From assembly GCA_037131105.1 (NCBI GenBank), contig JBAXRQ010000001.1, positions 2,039 through 66,038 of the forward strand: 64,000 bases of DNA. Reading direction: 5' to 3'. Numbering within the stretch: the stretch's first letter is position 1; each line of letters starts with the position of its first letter. The translations under genes were made by a program, and so were the position numbers. Shown here piece after piece: positions 1,721 through 25,883 of this stretch. The notes beneath the pieces were generated by a model, which did no database searches, had not been told where the DNA came from, and saw only the letters and a program-made list of their open reading frames with translations. This stretch comes from a bacterium. Lineage in GTDB: Bacteria; Patescibacteriota; UBA1384; CAILIB01.

Positions 1721-1737
1721 TGGTGCCGCGAGAGGGA
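1721..1737 (-). repeat. 17-nt direct repeat of the tRNA-Leu(GAG) 3' end (tggtgccgcgagaggga)
   Basis: It is a perfect copy of positions 1814-1830, which is the 3' acceptor/T-stem of the tRNA-Leu. It lies 76 bp beyond the tRNA 3' end. Confidence 0.8.
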
Positions 1738-1813
1738 TATGCAGCTGCCGGGGGCAGGTGCATGTACCATCTAGTGACTAGTCCCGAGGGCGGCTACCTT
1801 AACTCTATCAAAC

Positions 1814-1899
1814 TGGTGCCGCGAGAGGGACTCGAACCCTCACACCATTGCTGGTCTAGGCCCTCAACCTAGTGCGTATACCGATTCCGCCATCGCGGC
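1814..1899 (-). tRNA. tRNA-Leu (anticodon GAG), 86 nt, long variable arm, CCA encoded
   Basis: Reverse complement is GCCGCGATGGCGG...CTAGGTTGAGGGCCTAG...GGGTTCGAGTCCCTCTCGCGGCACCA. It has a 7-bp acceptor stem, an anticodon loop TTGAGGG and a long extra arm. Confidence 0.85.
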
Positions 1900-2507: not shown

Positions 2508-4001
2508 ATGTCCTGCGCAGTAGTTTCAAGTGCCTGTCTTTCCGGTCCCCGTGTAGTTCCGGTGCGTATCGAGGTGGATATCCAGCCTGGCTTGCCTTTG
2601 TTTACGGTCATCGGCCTGCCGGATAGGCGCATAGGCGAGGCCAAGGAGCGGGTGCGCTCAGCCATCAAGAATAGCGGCTTCACCTTTCCTTTGGGCAAGA
2701 TCACCGTCAATCTCTCCCCGTCCTCAGTGCCTAAGCAGGGAACCGGTCTAGATCTGGCCATAGCGGTGGGAGTGCTGGCTGCCAGCGGGAAATGTCGGGT
2801 ACCTGAAGATGGCTGTTGGGTGCTGGGTGAGCTGGCTTTGGATGGAGTAGTGCGGCCCTGTCAGCCCCTACTGCCTTTGCTTGTAGAGGCGCTTGATCAC
2901 GGTATTCCAGGTGTAATTATCCCGGCGGTAAACAGTGATGAGGTAGCACAGGTGCCCGAGTGCGCTACCTTCACCGCCGCTTCTTTACAAGAACTGGCGG
3001 GCAAGCTGTCTAAGCGATTATTCTGGAAACCCGGGGTATCTCTTCCTGACCTCCTGCCTACTCGGAATGAGTACTTCATTGATCACATCCGGGGTCAGGC
3101 CGAGGCTAAGCGCTGCTTGACTATTGCCCTGGCAGGAGGCCACCACATGCTGATGACCGGCCCTCCCGGTACCGGGAAGACCCTGCTGGCACGCGCAGCC
3201 GGCGAACTGCTCCCCTTTTTGACGAGGCGCCAGTCGCTTGACCATGCCCGTATCAGATCGTTGGTGGATGATCATTCATCTATCCAATTCGAGCCTCCCT
3301 TCCGTAGTCCTCACCATACGATCAGTCGAGCAGGCTTGTTGGGAGGTGGAAGCCAGGGCTTCCCCGGTGAAGTCAGCCTGGCAAATGACGGGATACTCTT
3401 TTTAGATGAGATCAGTGAGATCTCTCGGTCAGTGCTCGAGTCCTTGAGGCAGCCTTTGCAGGATAGACAGGTAGTCATCAATCGCAAAGGAGGCGAGCTA
3501 AAATACCCGGCTGACTGCCTGGTGATCGCAGCACGGAACCCCTGTCCCTGCGGTTTACTAGGAGTTGAGGGTCAAGTTTGCCGCTGCAGCGCTGGGGAGA
3601 TGGAGAGGTATGAGCGGAGGCTTTCTGAGGCTCTGCTGGATCGGTTCGATTTGTTCTGCCCGGTGCCGGCTGAGTCAGGTAGGGAGGTGGCGGCAGATGG
3701 ACGTAGTATGGCGGCAGAAATTGCACGATGCAGAAAGGTCCAGGGGAGACGTTGGGGCCAGAATATGACTAACGGAAAAGCGCTCCTAGAAGAACTGGAG
3801 AAGGTTGTTCGGTTGGATCAACCAAGCGGTAAGATGCTAGACGAGGCGACGGGGCGATTCTACCTTTCTATGCGTGGCCGGCAGAAGGTGTTGGCCGTAG
3901 CTTTGACGGTGGCGGACCTAGACAGAAAACCGCGACCCACTATTGAACATCTTCGAGAAGCACTAAGTTACCGTTACCGATCCTCGAATCAACGGTTCTA
4001 A
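2508..4001 (+). CDS. comM: Mg-chelatase-like AAA+ protein YifB/ComM
   Basis: N-terminal VIGLPDRRIGEAKERVRSAIKNSGFTFP...ITVNLSPSSVPKQGTGLDLAIAVGVLAA is the Lon-like ComM N-domain. It is followed by Walker A MTGPPGTGKT and a C-terminal Mg-chelatase domain. Confidence 0.9.
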   Translation: MSCAVVSSACLSGPRVVPVRIEVDIQPGLPLFTVIGLPDRRIGEAKERVRSAIKNSGFTFPLGKITVNLSPSSVPKQGTGLDLAIAVGVLAASGKCRVPEDGCWVLGELALDGVVRPCQPLLPLLVEALDHGIPGVIIPAVNSDEVAQVPECATFTAASLQELAGKLSKRLFWKPGVSLPDLLPTRNEYFIDHIRGQAEAKRCLTIALAGGHHMLMTGPPGTGKTLLARAAGELLPFLTRRQSLDHARIRSLVDDHSSIQFEPPFRSPHHTISRAGLLGGGSQGFPGEVSLANDGILFLDEISEISRSVLESLRQPLQDRQVVINRKGGELKYPADCLVIAARNPCPCGLLGVEGQVCRCSAGEMERYERRLSEALLDRFDLFCPVPAESGREVAADGRSMAAEIARCRKVQGRRWGQNMTNGKALLEELEKVVRLDQPSGKMLDEATGRFYLSMRGRQKVLAVALTVADLDRKPRPTIEHLREALSYRYRSSNQRF

Positions 4002-4137
4002 TCTGTACTTTGGTGATCTGACCAGCTATATTGGGAGGGAATCGGAAAGCAATACTGGTCTGTACTCGTAGCTTCGCTACTCGTGCTGACCTCGTCGAAA
4101 GTCTAATCCCATGCAAGCATGGATTATCCTTTCTCCT

Positions 4138-4214
4138 CGGTCTGTAGCTCAGTTGGTTAGAGCAACGCTCTTATAAGGCGTGGGTCCTGGGTTCAAGTCC
4201 CAGCAGACCGACCA
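4138..4214 (+). tRNA. tRNA-Ile with anticodon UAU (TAT), 77 nt, CCA encoded
   Basis: CGGTCTGTAGCTCAGTTGGTTAGAGCAACGCTCTTATAAGGCGTGGGTCCTGGGTTCAAGTCCCAGCAGACCGACCA. The backbone is nearly identical to bacterial tRNA-Ile(GAU). The anticodon loop CTTATAA gives UAU. Confidence 0.8.
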
Positions 4215-4223
4215 AAGTAAAAA

Positions 4224-4246
4224 GGCAGCAATATGCTGCCTTTTTA
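4224..4246 (+). terminator. rho-independent terminator after tRNA-Ile (GGCAGCA-loop-TGCTGCC + T5)
   Basis: A GC-rich hairpin is followed by TTTTT. Confidence 0.7.
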
Positions 4247-4374
4247 CTTTGCCTGTATCAGGTTGGGACTTGAACGGGAGAGGGGTCGGGAGAACGGAAG
4301 TTCTCCCGTGGAGGAAGGTAGCCTTCGAAGAAGGCGTTAAGGAAACCGTGGGTTTCCTAGTGCGGAGCACGTGA

Positions 4375-4394
4375 AAGTCCCAGCAGACCGACCA
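4375..4394 (+). repeat. 20-nt perfect direct repeat of the tRNA-Ile 3' end (aagtcccagcagaccgacca)
   Basis: Identical to 4195-4214 and located 160 bp downstream of the tRNA. It is immediately followed by a second hairpin terminator. Confidence 0.85.
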
Positions 4395-4398
4395 GAAC

Positions 4399-4432
4399 AA
4401 AAGAACATCCAAACGGATGTTCTTTTGTTCTG
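4399..4432 (+). terminator. second hairpin terminator (AAGAACATCC-aaac-GGATGTTCTT + T-tract)
   Basis: 10-bp stem followed by TTTGTT. Confidence 0.65.
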
Positions 4433-4519
4433 TAATAGGATTGACTTTTTTATCGTTGCGTGGTAGTATCCGGCGGTTCAATTACGAACTGAGGTTTAGA
4501 GTTTACAGAGGGGAATCAA

Positions 4520-5338
4520 ATGAAAAAGTTACTAAGACGTTTGGAAGAGTCACTGAGACGTTCCAAGTTCTACAGGGAAAATGCACAGATGGTTCAGGCG
4601 GGAATGCTGATCGGGTTGGCTATCTATGTTGCGTTCTTTGCCTGTCATGAGTATTATCGGCAGCCTCAGCTTCCGACCCTCGTCAGCTTATGGGCAGTCG
4701 GCCTGGCGACCATCTATTCAATCCCTATTGTGATGAGGCTCAGAAGGTTTTCATCCTCCTACGAGGGTGAGTACCGCCCGGCACTAGAGGTACTAAGTAG
4801 CGAGTCTGGAATCTCGAAATGCCGCATTCTGGTGGCGCAGAACGACATGATGGGAGCGGCTGCCTGCGGTTTTTGGGGGCAGGCCACGGTAATCCTTACG
4901 AGCAGTCTGTGCCAGCTCCCCTATGAGCAGCTTGAAGCGGTTTTTGCTCATGAGCTGGGCCACCTTGCTCATCGGGATGCCTTAGTGAAGTCGGCAATTG
5001 GACTTACCCTGTTGGACCTCATGTGCTGGCTAAGCGTTTCGCTTACCAACTACCTGCAGGGCAACGAGGCAACCCTTTTCGTCATATCCAGCTGTATGGC
5101 GGTAGCGACGCTCGTTCCCGTTCTTGCGTACAACCGAGCCATCGAGCGCAGAACTGACAGATTTGCAGCATGTCTTACAGGGAAGCCTGAAAATCTGGCA
5201 AAAGCCCTTTCCAGTATGTTGGAAAACAACTATCTGCTCCCTGGCATAGTTGTTAGGGAGAAAGAGCCGTTCTGGGTACGTATGTTCAATACTCACCCTG
5301 CTATTCATGAGAGGATACGGATGTATGGCCAAGCCTAA
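4520..5338 (+). CDS. htpX: M48-family zinc metallopeptidase, HtpX-like
   Basis: HEXXH motif AHELGHLAHRD, N-terminal TM helices and a C-terminal THPAIHERI motif typical of HtpX. RBS GAGGGG lies 6 nt upstream of the ATG. Confidence 0.85.
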   Translation: MKKLLRRLEESLRRSKFYRENAQMVQAGMLIGLAIYVAFFACHEYYRQPQLPTLVSLWAVGLATIYSIPIVMRLRRFSSSYEGEYRPALEVLSSESGISKCRILVAQNDMMGAAACGFWGQATVILTSSLCQLPYEQLEAVFAHELGHLAHRDALVKSAIGLTLLDLMCWLSVSLTNYLQGNEATLFVISSCMAVATLVPVLAYNRAIERRTDRFAACLTGKPENLAKALSSMLENNYLLPGIVVREKEPFWVRMFNTHPAIHERIRMYGQA

Positions 5339-5425: not shown

Positions 5426-7540
5426 TTAGATAGCGTCCTTCATGCTCAGGGAGATACGTCCCTTTTCAGCATCGACTGCCTTCACCTTCACCTTTACGCT
5501 GTCCCCGATCTTCAGAATGTCGGAAACCAGGTTGATGCGGTCCTTGGAGACTTCGGAGATGTGTACCATTCCCTCCTTGTTAGGCAGAAACTGGACGATG
5601 GCGCCGATCTCCTTCTTAGGATCAATGCGGTCCTTGATGATCTGGATCACCTCGCCGTCGAACACCTCGCCTACCTCGATGGCGCGGCCGATGGCCTTGA
5701 CCTGCTCGATAGCCCACTTGGCCATCTCAGGATCAGAGGAGGCAATCATGACGGTACCGTCATCCTCGATGTCGATGGTGGTGATCTCCTTGCCGCCAGC
5801 CTCGCTGATGATACGGTTGATGTTCTTGCCGCCAGGCCCGATCAGCTCACCGATCTTGGCTGGGTCGATCTCGATTGCGGTGATACGCGGTGCATACTTG
5901 GACATCTCTTCGCGTGGCTCGGAGATGGTCTCCATCATCTTCTCAAGGATGAACATGCGGCCCTCAAAGGCCTGACTAAGCGTCTGCTCAATGATCGGCC
6001 AGGTTAGGCCCTCGATCTTGGTATCCATTTGGATAGCCGTGATACCGTCCTGGGTACCGGCGATCTTGAAGTCCATGTCACCGGCGAAGTCCTCAAGTCC
6101 CTGCAGGTCGGTCAGGACCTTGAACTTGGAGGCATCGTCATTGGTGACCAGGCCCATGGCGATACCAGAGACCGGAGCCGAAATAGGTACGCCGGCGTCC
6201 ATCAATGCCAGAGTAGAGCCACAGGTGGAGGCCATGGAAGACGAACCGTTGGAAGACAGGATCTCAGATACCAGGCGGATCGTGTAGGGGAAGTCACTCT
6301 GATCTGGGATCACCGGAGCCAAAGCCCGCTCAGCCAAGGCGCCGTGACCAGTCTCGCGACGGGAGGTTCCGCGTACGGGAGAAGCCTCACCGGTGGAATA
6401 CGGAGGGAAGTTGTAATGGTGCATGAAGCGCTTGGTACCCTCAAAGTCCATGGTGTCGATCATCTGCTCAGCACCAGGTGAGCCCAGGGTGGCGATAGTC
6501 AATGCCTGGGTCTGGCCGCGGGTGAACAGGGCTGAACCGTGGGTACGGGGCAGTAGGCTGACCTCTACGGTGATAGGGCGAACCTCAAGGATGCCGCGTC
6601 CGTCTGGGCGTTCCTCACGCTCCAGGATGGCTACGCGCACTTCCTTCTCCATCAGCTTGTTGACGGCCATGCGGATGTCTACCTGCTTGAAGGTGCCCTC
6701 CAGGTGGGCGCAGACCTTTACGGTGAGGTCGTCCAACAGGGTGGCCCGGACCTCAAGGTCCATGTTCTTCATGGCGGCAGTGATCTCATCGCCGCAGAAG
6801 CCCTTCACGGCCTCGTCGACAGTAGGTCCCTCCTTGCTCACAGTGTACTCAGGAGCGACATAGGCCTTGGCGAAGTCGTTCTGTACCTCAATGACCTGCT
6901 GCATGCCTTCGTGGGCCATTCTGAGGGCTTCTAGCATAATTTTCTCTGGTACCTGGTTGGCGCCAGCCTCAACCATCATGACCCGGTCCTTGGTTCCGGC
7001 GACCACAAGGTCAAGCTCGGACTCCTGCATTTCGATGCGGGTAGGGTTGACTACCAGCTTGCCGTCGATCAGACCGACCCGGCAGGCGCCTACGGCCTGT
7101 TTGAACGGGGCGGTACCGGCCTTCATCAGGGCGCAGGAGGCGGCGATGATGGCCAGGATGTCAGGGTCGTTCTCCTTGTCTATGGAAAGAACGGTGACGA
7201 TAACCTGGACGTCCTTCCTGAACTTCTTGTCGAACAGGGGACGAAGAGGGCGGTCGATCAGGCGAGAAGTAAGGATGGCGGCCTCGGAAGGACGTCCCTC
7301 ACGCTTAATGAACCGGGAACCGGAGATCTTACCGGCTGCGTACAGGCGCTCCTCGTAGTCCACCATCAGGGGGAAATAGTCTATCCCCTCGCGCTCGGAC
7401 TTGGATACTACCACGGTGGCCAGCAGCACGGTCTCACCGGCGGTGAGAGTGATGGCTGCGTCGGCCTGCTCTGCCATGCGACCAAACTCGATGGTCAGCT
7501 GGCGGTCACCAAGGGTGGTGACAAATTGCTCTACGGGCAT
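5426..7540 (-). CDS. pnp: polyribonucleotide nucleotidyltransferase (PNPase)
   Basis: MPVEQFVTTLGDRQLTIEFGRMAEQADAAI...two RNase PH domains...KH and S1 C-terminus (GEVFDGEVIQIIKDRIDPKKEIGAIVQF...). The start is chosen at MPVEQ, which has an AAAGG RBS. Confidence 0.95.
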   Translation of the reverse strand: MPVEQFVTTLGDRQLTIEFGRMAEQADAAITLTAGETVLLATVVVSKSEREGIDYFPLMVDYEERLYAAGKISGSRFIKREGRPSEAAILTSRLIDRPLRPLFDKKFRKDVQVIVTVLSIDKENDPDILAIIAASCALMKAGTAPFKQAVGACRVGLIDGKLVVNPTRIEMQESELDLVVAGTKDRVMMVEAGANQVPEKIMLEALRMAHEGMQQVIEVQNDFAKAYVAPEYTVSKEGPTVDEAVKGFCGDEITAAMKNMDLEVRATLLDDLTVKVCAHLEGTFKQVDIRMAVNKLMEKEVRVAILEREERPDGRGILEVRPITVEVSLLPRTHGSALFTRGQTQALTIATLGSPGAEQMIDTMDFEGTKRFMHHYNFPPYSTGEASPVRGTSRRETGHGALAERALAPVIPDQSDFPYTIRLVSEILSSNGSSSMASTCGSTLALMDAGVPISAPVSGIAMGLVTNDDASKFKVLTDLQGLEDFAGDMDFKIAGTQDGITAIQMDTKIEGLTWPIIEQTLSQAFEGRMFILEKMMETISEPREEMSKYAPRITAIEIDPAKIGELIGPGGKNINRIISEAGGKEITTIDIEDDGTVMIASSDPEMAKWAIEQVKAIGRAIEVGEVFDGEVIQIIKDRIDPKKEIGAIVQFLPNKEGMVHISEVSKDRINLVSDILKIGDSVKVKVKAVDAEKGRISLSMKDAI

Positions 7541-7733
7541 TGATGCCTTTCTTTCCCGCCGCGTAACGATTTCAGAATACCCGGGGGCATTCCGCAATCT
7601 CTTACGTGGCAGGAACGATTAAATGTATGTCTAGTTTGATCTTATCAGAAAGGTTGCAGGGAGGCCACAGGTGCTTGACTGATGGCTAGCGCAGTGGTTT
7701 AATGCGGTCAGATCTTTTCAGGAGAGGAATGTT

Positions 7734-14840: not shown

Positions 14841-14976
14841 ACTCCGCGGCCGAACCGGTTTGGAAGTTCAAGGAAGGCTTCTGCTTGCAGAAGTCTTTTC
14901 TTTTTCTAGCAGGCTACTAACCTTTTACTAAAATACTCCAGCCAGCAAACACGAATATTCATTTGTGGGAATGTTC

Positions 14977-14996
14977 TGGGGGCCCTAGAAGGCTCG
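14977..14996 (-). repeat. degenerate copy of tRNA-Val 3' end (18/20 match to 15093-15113)
   Basis: tgggggccctagaaggctcg versus tggtgggccctagaggactcg. It lies about 95 bp beyond the tRNA-Val 3' end. Confidence 0.55.
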
Positions 14997-15060
14997 TTTG
15001 TATCCTGCGGAGCTGCAGGCTTGCACATGGTACTCGAGTCCCCTAACTTAGTCGCCAAAC

Positions 15061-15092
15061 AAAAAAACCGACATCTAGTCGGTTTCTTTGTT
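15061..15092 (-). terminator. hairpin terminator after tRNA-Val (AACCGAC-tagat-GTCGGTT + T-run)
   Basis: The stem is flanked by A/T runs on both strands. Confidence 0.65.
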
Positions 15093-15168
15093 TGGTGGGC
15101 CCTAGAGGACTCGAACCTCTGACATCTTCGGTGTAAACGAAGCGCTCTACCAGCTGAGCTAAGAGCCC
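15093..15168 (-). tRNA. tRNA-Val (anticodon TAC)
   Basis: GGGCTCTTAGCTCAGCTGGTAGAGCGCTTCGTTTACACCGAAGATGTCAGAGGTTCGAGTCCTCTAGGGCCCACCA. Confidence 0.85.
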
Positions 15169-25552: not shown

Positions 25553-25628
25553 TCCCCTGTAGCTCAGTGGTAGTAGCGCCTCGCTGTTAACGAGGATGTC
25601 GTTGGTTCGAATCCAACCGGGGGAGCCA
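25553..25628 (+). tRNA. tRNA-Asn (anticodon GTT)
   Basis: TCCCCTGTAGCTCAGTGGTAGTAGCGCCTCGCTGTTAACGAGGATGTCGTTGGTTCGAATCCAACCGGGGGAGCCA. Confidence 0.85.
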
Positions 25629-25631
25629 AAG

Positions 25632-25665
25632 AAAAAGACAGATCCTCGGATCTGTCTTTTTCTTT
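25632..25665 (+). terminator. hairpin terminator after tRNA-Asn (AAGACAGATCC-tcg-GATCTGTCTT + T-tract)
   Basis: Perfect 11-bp stem followed by TTTTCTTTG. Confidence 0.7.
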
Positions 25666-25883
25666 GTTTATCGTAAGGTTGGATTCGAAAGGGAGAGGGG
25701 TGGGGAGAATATGGGCCTTGCTTATAGTGCAAACTCCTTCTTTCTGATGTCTTACTTGATCGTTTTTGTACTCCGAGACCGAGATTGAGACTAGTGTTAA
25801 TAGTTAGTTCACTCTGTATCGCCTCAGTTTCTTCCCTTTATCTCCGGCCTGCCTGTATACTTGATGCATCTATAAAAAATACC

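Follow-up and report, generated by a model that had tools for sequence, protein, structure and literature searches.

The gene for tRNA-Ile(TAT) in the 64-kb stretch of DNA analysed here (hereafter the window, part of contig JBAXRQ010000001.1) is followed by a second copy of its own 3' end, and both copies run into a terminator-type hairpin. Is this arrangement the trace of an integrated element, as a first-pass annotation proposed when it described the locus as an attachment (att)-like scar, or do the 160 nt between the copies form a unit in their own right? The analysis reported here favors the second answer: with a probability of about 60%, positions 4215-4432 represent an element of the kind described in E. 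coli as tRNA-linked repeats (TLRs), that is, a structured RNA module which lies between a first and a second terminator (T1 and T2) and ends in a copy of the tRNA 3' end.

AAGTCCCAGCAGACCGACCA, the final 20 nt of tRNA-Ile, is present at exactly two places in the window, where none would be expected from 100 shuffles. The two copies are separated by a 160-nt gap (180 nt from start to start), and the direct repeat, when followed in register, reaches 28 nt at 89% identity. A perfect 18-bp hairpin follows each copy, beginning at the CA of its CCA (4213-4230/4234-4251 and 4393-4410/4415-4432), and both hairpins are of the terminator type, with a G+C-rich core of 7-8 bp that is followed by a T-rich tract. 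A simple terminator scan listed neither of them, because their T tracts are paired with A tracts further upstream, which lengthens the stem. The insert also contains an inverted copy of the T-loop region of the tRNA, TGGGACTTGAAC at 4264-4275, which is complementary at 12 of 12 positions to the T-loop and T-stem of tRNA-Ile (4191-4202) and 85% complementary to the start of the second copy. The first-pass annotation had listed the perfect repeat 160 bp downstream, the hairpin behind each copy, the inverted T-loop copy and a G-rich motif, and all of these were recovered, the last of them also near tRNA-Asn. It had further considered that the repeat might be an assembly artefact. This is not the case, since three independent assemblies agree: across 736 nt, the contigs of ERZ27300165, ERZ27300174 and Logan SRR7053528 show 100% identity. 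No credible open reading frame (ORF) was present in the 160 nt between the repeats; the ORFs at 4180-4374 (plus strand) and 4149-4481 (minus strand) overlap the tRNA as well as conserved helices and were regarded as spurious.

The insert is a conserved, folded element of ~133 nt (4262-4394) between two terminators (Table 1). The minimum free energy (MFE) of the segment 4255-4394 is -57.4 kcal/mol, compared to -42.9 ± 3.7 kcal/mol for shuffled sequences (z = -4.0). The predicted structure is a closed, multi-branch fold in which the helix 4262-4271/4375-4384 encloses three to four hairpins, while the 10-nt tail AGACCGACCA is left unpaired. In terms of the tRNA, the 5' arm of the element is complementary to the end of the T-loop, the 3' strand of the T-stem and the first base of the acceptor, and the tail corresponds to the 3' strand of the acceptor plus ACCA. 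In distant relatives, compensatory substitutions preserve this fold. In an alignment of four sequences (A2), namely those of the window and of the relatives L141, L052 and L179, 91.6% of the helix cells are paired, against only 31-51% in controls with slid partners, and seven pairs display changes on both sides, which none of 500 shuffles attained. The body of the element is 68-83% identical among the window, L141 and L179, and the ComM proteins encoded by the element-bearing lineages are about 40-46% identical. A decaying scar is therefore unlikely, since the body is conserved and its helices are compensated despite a ComM identity of ~46%, and the suggestion of a decayed or excised element had to be abandoned.

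Table 1. Positions in the window of the tRNA-Ile locus, its neighbours and the other tRNA loci with the same layout
Feature	Position	Strand	Remarks
ComM/YifB gene	2508-4001		Upstream neighbour of tRNA-Ile
Structured leader of tRNA-Ile	4055-4137	+	Copy of acceptor 5' strand GGTCTG (4057-4062), hairpin, ACCTCGTCG (4089-4097)
Leader hairpin with GCAAGC loop, then pyrimidine tract	4109-4122	+	Flagged as terminator-like in scan
tRNA-Ile(TAT), CCA encoded	4138-4214	+	ARAGORN; Rfam tRNA, 71.5 bits
Direct repeat, copy 1	4195-4214	+	Last 4 nt of T-loop, T-stem 3' strand, acceptor 3' strand, ACCA
Terminator-type hairpin T1	4213-4251	+	Core GGCAGCA/TGCTGCC (4224-4230/4234-4240), then TTTTTACTTTG; present in MFE fold
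Element 5' arm	4262-4275	+	4262-4271 pairs with 4375-4384
G-rich box GGGAGAGGGGTCGGGAGAA	4276-4294	+	Recurs with 1 mismatch at 25691-25709, past tRNA-Asn; 0 expected
Hairpin 4287-4295/4300-4308 (helix 2)	4287-4308	+	MFE fold; 3 compensatory pairs across lineages
Hairpin 4321-4326/4330-4335	4321-4335	+	Window lineage only; MFE fold, alignment
Hairpin 4340-4347/4351-4358 (helix 4)	4340-4358	+	Conserved CCGTGGG top; 3 compensatory pairs
Hairpin GTGC-GGA-GCAC (helix 5)	4360-4370	+	CTGC-AAA-GCAG in L141 and L179
Direct repeat, copy 2	4375-4394	+	4375-4384, 3' strand of closing helix; 4385-4394 (AGACCGACCA), unpaired tail
Terminator-type hairpin T2	4393-4432	+	Core GAACATCC/GGATGTTC (4403-4410/4415-4422), then TTTTGTTCTG; inverted-repeat search
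Promoter-like site TTGACT-17-TAGTAT of M48 peptidase gene	4441-4469	+	Outside the element
M48 peptidase gene	4520-5338	+	Downstream neighbour of element
PNPase gene	5426-7597	-	Downstream neighbour
tRNA-Arg(CCG) locus (second)	54793-55057	+	tRNA 54793-54868, T1 54869-54904, folded body 54905-54999 (~95 nt)
Copy at tRNA-Arg locus	55000-55018	+	Exact 19-nt ATTCCTGCCGGGCGCACCA, then T2 (55019-55057)
tRNA-Leu(GAG) locus (third)	1721-1899	-	tRNA 1814-1899, 75-nt body, 17/18 copy ATCCCTCTCGCGGCACCA at 1721-1738
tRNA-Val(TAC) locus (fourth, degenerate)	14976-15168	-	tRNA 15093-15168, T1 about 15055-15092
Arm and copy at tRNA-Val locus	15033-15044; 14976-14995	-	Inverted T-loop arm AGGGGACTCGAG; diverged copy GAGCCTTCTAGGGCCCCCAG
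tRNA-Asn locus (fifth, partial)	25553-25709	+	tRNA 25553-25628, T1 25629-25665
Inverted T-arm and G-rich box at tRNA-Asn locus	25677-25709	+	GGTTGGATTCGAAAGGGAGAGGGGTGGGGAGAA; box 1 base off the Ile box

Relatives of the locus were found by scanning genome and metagenome contigs with 18-mers, followed by look-ups of ComM homologues that yielded eight further loci. The 18-mer scans returned mostly chance matches in GC-rich genomes, the tRNA being present at only 5 of 238 loci. Together with the window, the tRNA-Ile loci compared are L052, L141, L168, L179, L212, L243-L245 and L274-L277 (13 in all), and the gene order ComM - tRNA-Ile(TAT) - PNPase is kept in every relative locus with visible context. 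The element is present in four lineages (the window, L141, L052 and L179), and is shorter in L052, with a 28/28 repeat and a spacing of 123 nt. In seven syntenic loci (L243, L244, L245, L274, L275, L276 and L277), tRNA-Ile is devoid of the element, and what follows it is either one hairpin or other sequence. The element is also absent from L212, for which no ComM-PNPase context is visible, while L168 is uninformative, as its contig ends 2 nt past the CCA of tRNA-Ile. The first-pass annotation had set two outcomes side by side, i.e. strains with and without the insert, or a unit carried by all relatives with no empty site. The former was observed, with four lineages possessing and eight lacking the insert. 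The ComM tree is star-like and the element-bearing lineages form no clear clade; the element may have been gained or lost repeatedly within the clade, a star-like tree being compatible with a single gain and frequent loss, with several gains, and with spread between lineages.

The design is not confined to tRNA-Ile. A search with the 3'-terminal 16-18 nt of all tRNAs in the window showed that it recurs at four or five transcription units, in each case after the final tRNA (Table 1). At the tRNA-Arg locus, the closing helix is formed by 54912-54919/55004-55011, and an independent contig, L280, carries the second copy together with T2. The sole relative found for this locus (69% identity, neighbouring gene) is not syntenic, and the repeat is where the other contig of the same strain breaks off. 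At the tRNA-Leu locus, the 5' arm GGTAGCCGC pairs with GCGGCACC, and a homologous element occurs past the tRNA-Leu(GAG) of L245. At the tRNA-Asn locus, a 3' copy of the tRNA end was not found downstream of the tRNA; the Ile and Asn elements have a common 19-mer at the same relative position, and no other body motif tested has a further copy in the window. Within the Gly-Cys-Leu-Phe-Val cluster, only the last gene, Val, has the layout, and the four internal tRNAs are without it. All of the repeats begin in the T-loop and run to the CCA. For comparison, 30 tRNAs from unrelated loci totalling 1.56 Mb were examined, and such a copy was absent from all of them, tandem tRNA genes excepted.

A further case was noted at L026 (7765-7893), in a metagenome-assembled genome of Candidatus Colwellbacteria. 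There, GTCCCAGCAGACCGACCA and a terminator hairpin lie 40 nt past a tRNA-Pro(TGG) whose gene does not encode CCA, and GTCCCAGCAGACCGACCA is a 14/16 match to the 3' end of that same tRNA-Pro, now with CCA. This hints that the layout occurs in other Patescibacteria.

A comparable arrangement has been described in E. coli. As summarised in PMC8144298, TLRs were first reported there in 1978 (Egan and Landy), and 22 units are distributed over ten loci, all of them with 18-19 bp of the 3' end of the upstream tRNA or rRNA (Rudd 1999). The searchable literature treats TLRs as peculiar to E. coli and its relatives among the Enterobacteriales, the majority of them being without a known function. The rrB unit of rrnB sits between T1 and T2 with a repeat spacing of 150 bp and is produced by read-through of T1; cleavage by RNase E at the repeat has been proposed. 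One end of rrB falls at the RNase E site that follows 5S, and the other at the corresponding site behind the copy (PMC8144298). The rrA, rrB and rrF units are >98% identical to one another, and both rrB and rtT share a transcript with the upstream RNA, from which a discrete RNA is processed. At tyrT of strain K-12, we found four Rfam RtT units (133-137 bits), each of which ends in AATCCTTCCCCCACCACCA, the 3' end of tRNA-Tyr from T-loop position 58. In the RtT consensus, a helix joins the 5' arm GGGGAAGG to CCUUCCCC within the copy, several hairpins lie inside, and the last 9 nt are free.

The anatomy of the window element is the same as that of the E. coli TLR/RtT units, the likeness being architectural and not one of homology. 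Like the 178-bp repeats of tyrT (rtT RNA) and rrA/rrB/rrF, the element (4215-4394) lies directly past a stable-RNA gene and in the same orientation (tRNA at 4138-4214, both on the plus strand), and this holds for the Arg, Leu and Val loci also. As in E. coli, it ends in an 18-20-nt copy of the 3' end of the upstream RNA, which begins in the T-loop (A57/A58) and terminates in CCA, with a spacing of 150-180 bp; the copy is retained at 20/20 positions for Ile, 19/19 for Arg and 17/18 for Leu, and is diverged for Val (the E. coli reference is 19 nt). Furthermore, a complementary 5' arm closes a multi-branch fold and leaves the acceptor strand and CCA unpaired (Ile and Arg), the dual-terminator setting resembles that of rrnB, and one genome carries several such loci, in each of which the copy corresponds to the RNA upstream of it (Ile, Arg, Leu and Val, with Asn partial). 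In contrast to the E. coli units, the window elements reside in a Patescibacteria-like rather than an enterobacterial genome and have no detectable sequence or covariance-model similarity to them. Their bodies are mostly unrelated between tRNAs (only Ile and Asn share a box), whereas in E. coli a single Rfam model covers the four tyrT units sampled and rrA, rrB and rrF hardly differ. They occur as single units, unlike the tandem arrays of tyrT. Binding partners of E. coli TLRs are Hfq and CsrA.

Another trailer-derived RNA of E. coli, 3'ETS-leuZ, acts by base-pairing to RyhB and RybB and has, to our knowledge, neither a copy of a tRNA 3' end nor a second terminator. According to PMC8144298, it is released when the primary transcript of a tRNA operon is processed, and it derives from the 3' external spacer, an origin that is predicted for the window element as well.

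By analogy with rrnB T1-rrB-T2 and tyrT-rtT (PMC8144298), a polymerase passing T1 would transcribe the element and halt at T2. The endonuclease/exonuclease system that matures tRNA 3' ends would then cut after the first CCA, thereby creating the 5' end of the element, and the same 3'-maturation system would act after the copied CCA to create its 3' end. The expected product is a stable RNA of ~135-180 nt, in an amount that would be a fixed fraction of tRNA transcription. If the machinery acts at both copies, the second copy would therefore serve as a borrowed processing signal and possibly as a mimic of a tRNA 3' end. As to its origin, the element probably arose by DNA duplication of the segment from T-loop to terminator, because the repeat runs past the CCA (28 nt at 89% in the window and 28/28 in L052).

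Several observations weigh against the assignment of the insert to the TLR type. The Rfam RtT model (RF00391) has no match in 4100-4480 (E ≤ 10) or in the whole window (E ≤ 5), E. coli tyrT serving as positive control with 133-137 bits, and the window element is for this reason regarded as a TLR analogue and not as a member of the RtT family; indeed, no Rfam family was found for the insert, either locally or window-wide. Most E. coli TLRs are themselves without an assigned function, and the Ile-linked element is dispensable, given its absence from 8 of 12 informative lineages. The Val-linked copy is degenerate, with a fold no better than that of shuffles. The covariation is drawn from four sequences only, and the strand of the structure is ambiguous. 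Each sequence contains just one G-U pair, A-C pairs are absent, and fold energies favor the plus strand by 5 kcal/mol for the Ile elements but the minus strand, slightly, for the Arg and Leu elements. Finally, transcription of the element, read-through of T1 and processing are all steps that we infer.

The alternative of an att scar would have a tRNA-targeting integrase, or a miniature cis-mobilisable integrative element, insert in the T-loop of tRNA-Ile, supply a new 3' end and terminator and move the native end by 180 bp, with all but ~160 bp of the element having been lost later or having never existed. A repeat from T-loop to CCA is the classic identity block of T-loop-type att sites, and the repeat here runs from the T-loop through the CCA and slightly beyond. 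In this respect, and in the presence or absence of the insert among relatives, the locus resembles the att repeats of tyrosine-integrase elements and of cis-mobilisable remnants (CIMEs). Downstream gene content that differs between the window (M48 peptidase) and L141 (XRE regulator), and type IV secretion genes located a few kb upstream of the window, may be added to this side. However, unlike att repeats and CIMEs, the repeats enclose neither integrase nor cargo; the variable genes lie outside them, and what lies between is a conserved folded unit that carries compensatory changes and is not decaying. In addition, the layout recurs at several tRNAs with the same internal design, such that four or five tRNAs within 64 kb would each need a tiny remnant with the same arm and copy. 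No recombinase is encoded among the 25 Pfam-scanned ORFs of the window, which include every tRNA neighbour. The 20-mer is absent from 2.9 million viral contigs, in which insert motifs give chance matches (26 unrelated ones for the 15-mer GAAACCGTGGGTTTC and a single unrelated one for the G-rich box), and a BLAST search of a phage collection matched only the tRNA part. Hence, no attP-related sequence was seen in the viral contigs or the phage collection, the plasmid collection not having been searched. In those parts of the TLR literature that were consulted, no integrase is reported for the E. coli units. Of the scar proposed by the first-pass annotation, the repeat geometry and the polymorphism thus stand, decay does not, an integrase is unsupported, and a miniature non-autonomous insertion is possible as a statement of origin only. 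Overall, we consider an att scar unlikely. A miniature inverted-repeat transposable element was also rejected, as the arms derive from each local tRNA and the bodies differ between loci.

The second alternative, likewise unlikely, is that a tRNA and its terminator were duplicated in tandem and that the second copy, having lost its 5' two-thirds, is without function. The copy with its terminator does look like the tail of another gene, body and tRNA have short matches in the same order (TAAGG...CGTGGGT), and the E. coli RtT units also contain an internal T-arm-like AAGGTTCGA. Even so, similarity between the body and the 5' part of the tRNA does not exceed that of shuffles at any of the four loci Ile, Arg, Leu and Val (z = -0.1 to 1.4). 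Furthermore, a pseudogene would not remain 68-83% identical with compensated helices, and the model offers no explanation for why each locus has a 5' arm that complements its copy.

Two further readings involve the structured leader of tRNA-Ile, the layout of which is also present in L179, L276, L277 and L141. The acceptor copy in this leader follows the lineage's own tRNA (tRNA CGACCTG and leader CGACCCG in L277; tRNA CGGTCCA and leader CGGCCAC in L276), and the leader may be an attenuator or a processing signal. As an extension of the TLR assignment, the leader GGUCUG (4057-4062) might pair with the trailer AGACCGACCA (4385-4394) and stack on the 10-bp helix, generating a mimic of an acceptor/T-arm minihelix with an ACCA overhang. 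This would be a decoy or feedback device for the enzymes that mature tRNA ends, in a cross-phylum class that evolved independently in Enterobacteria and Patescibacteria, and it could engage or titrate RNase P, 3' exonucleases and the CCA-adding enzyme. We regard this proposal as very unlikely to be correct as it stands.

Slimmer still are the chances of a cis-acting folding switch in the tRNA precursor, in which the arm at 4264-4275 would pair either with the T-loop and T-stem of its own tRNA or with the downstream copy, the leader acceptor copy would pair with either acceptor 3' strand, and the maturation of tRNA-Ile(UAU) would be controlled in this manner. The complementarities required do exist (12/12 to 4191-4202, and a 10-bp helix with 4375-4384), and the conserved leader copy tracks lineage-specific changes in the acceptor. 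On the other hand, the element lies behind the strong hairpin T1, tRNAs of unrelated identity have this layout too, and L276 and L277 have the leader copy without any trailer element.

The weakest of the alternatives, which we consider scarcely credible, is that the window element is a remnant, or the solo ends, of an insertion sequence (IS) of the IS110 family. It is prompted by L179 (reverse complement), where a 1210-bp IS of this family (470-1679; Pfam PF01548 and PF02371, with a frameshifted transposase) sits exactly between the 5' arm and the body of the element. Removal of this IS restores a contiguous element, its flanks joining into the intact form seen elsewhere. The window element is without IS sequence, and tblastn of the L179 transposase against the window returned nothing below E = 0.6. 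The non-coding end of the IS carries the 9-mers GGGTCGGGA, which equals the right target flank, and ACCTAGTAT, which equals its own other end; since these match the prediction for bridge-RNA-guided insertion (PMC11208160), the IS appears to have been placed into a pre-existing target. The remaining candidates were dropped: for a tmRNA or tRNA-like gene, ARAGORN found none and the best score was 12.8 bits for tmRNA_permuted (gathering threshold, 47 bits), and no motifs, models or shared insert sequences were found for a hammerhead, a Y-RNA-like RNA, a minus-strand primer-binding site, a casposon with target-site duplication or a group II intron.

Partial copies are also encountered on the 5' side of tRNA-Ile. 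In L141 (reverse complement), an exact copy of tRNA positions 1-39 is found ~100 nt upstream of tRNA-Ile, and the inverted 10-mer behind it, AAGAGCGTTG, pairs with the end of this copy. Pseudo-tRNA units resembling a 5' half are likewise present in the leaders of L052 (two copies), L243 and L274, mirroring the 3' phenomenon. Right after the ComM stop, a promoter-like sequence, TCTGTAC-N17-TATAYT, is conserved in the window (4004-4037), L244, L245 and L277, and its -35-like part resembles the tRNA 5' end (GGTCTGTAG). The tRNA-Ile itself, with anticodon TAT (UAU), is 95-100% identical across the 13 loci of the clade and stands beside ComM where context is visible. In bacteria, AUA is usually read by a lysidine-modified CAU tRNA, and a clade-wide tRNA-Ile(UAU) is thus unusual.

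With regard to the surroundings of the locus, the closest named relatives of its ComM are Patescibacteria, none of them above 49% identity, and a query of genome contigs with the M48 peptidase protein found no relative. The interval between tRNA-Ile and PNPase varies in gene content, with the M48 peptidase in the window, an XRE-type helix-turn-helix gene in L141 and small ORFs or nothing in L244 and L245; this variable spot lies outside the repeats. Type IV secretion-like genes (VirB4/TrbE, TraC-like and PrgI) are located at L004 1-1383, ~2 kb upstream of the window start. A gene for a PAS-GGDEF-EAL protein of 824 amino acids (52139-54613) adjoins the tRNA-Arg locus, and cyclic-di-GMP signalling is not expected in a small-genome, Patescibacteria-like organism. 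Logan contigs break at the repeats, L168 past the CCA of tRNA-Ile and L280 just upstream of the second tRNA-Arg copy; the repeats therefore fragment short-read assemblies.

A TLR-type element in a distant phylum is a new variant of a known but obscure class. The same anatomy, comprising a copy that starts in the T-loop, an arm, a free acceptor-CCA tail and a dual terminator, is found in a distant, small-genome lineage without sequence homology to the E. coli units. This shared anatomy suggests either that such units arise in a general way where stable-RNA operons end, or that an RNA tagged with a tRNA 3' end is of general use. In practical terms, short repeats of tRNA 3' ends are not, on their own, evidence of integrated elements, and such repeats explain the contig breaks beside tRNA genes in these assemblies. 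If the minihelix mimic were true, it would represent a built-in decoy or feedback device for tRNA processing. The elements of the window provide a second, independent system in which to ask what TLRs do.

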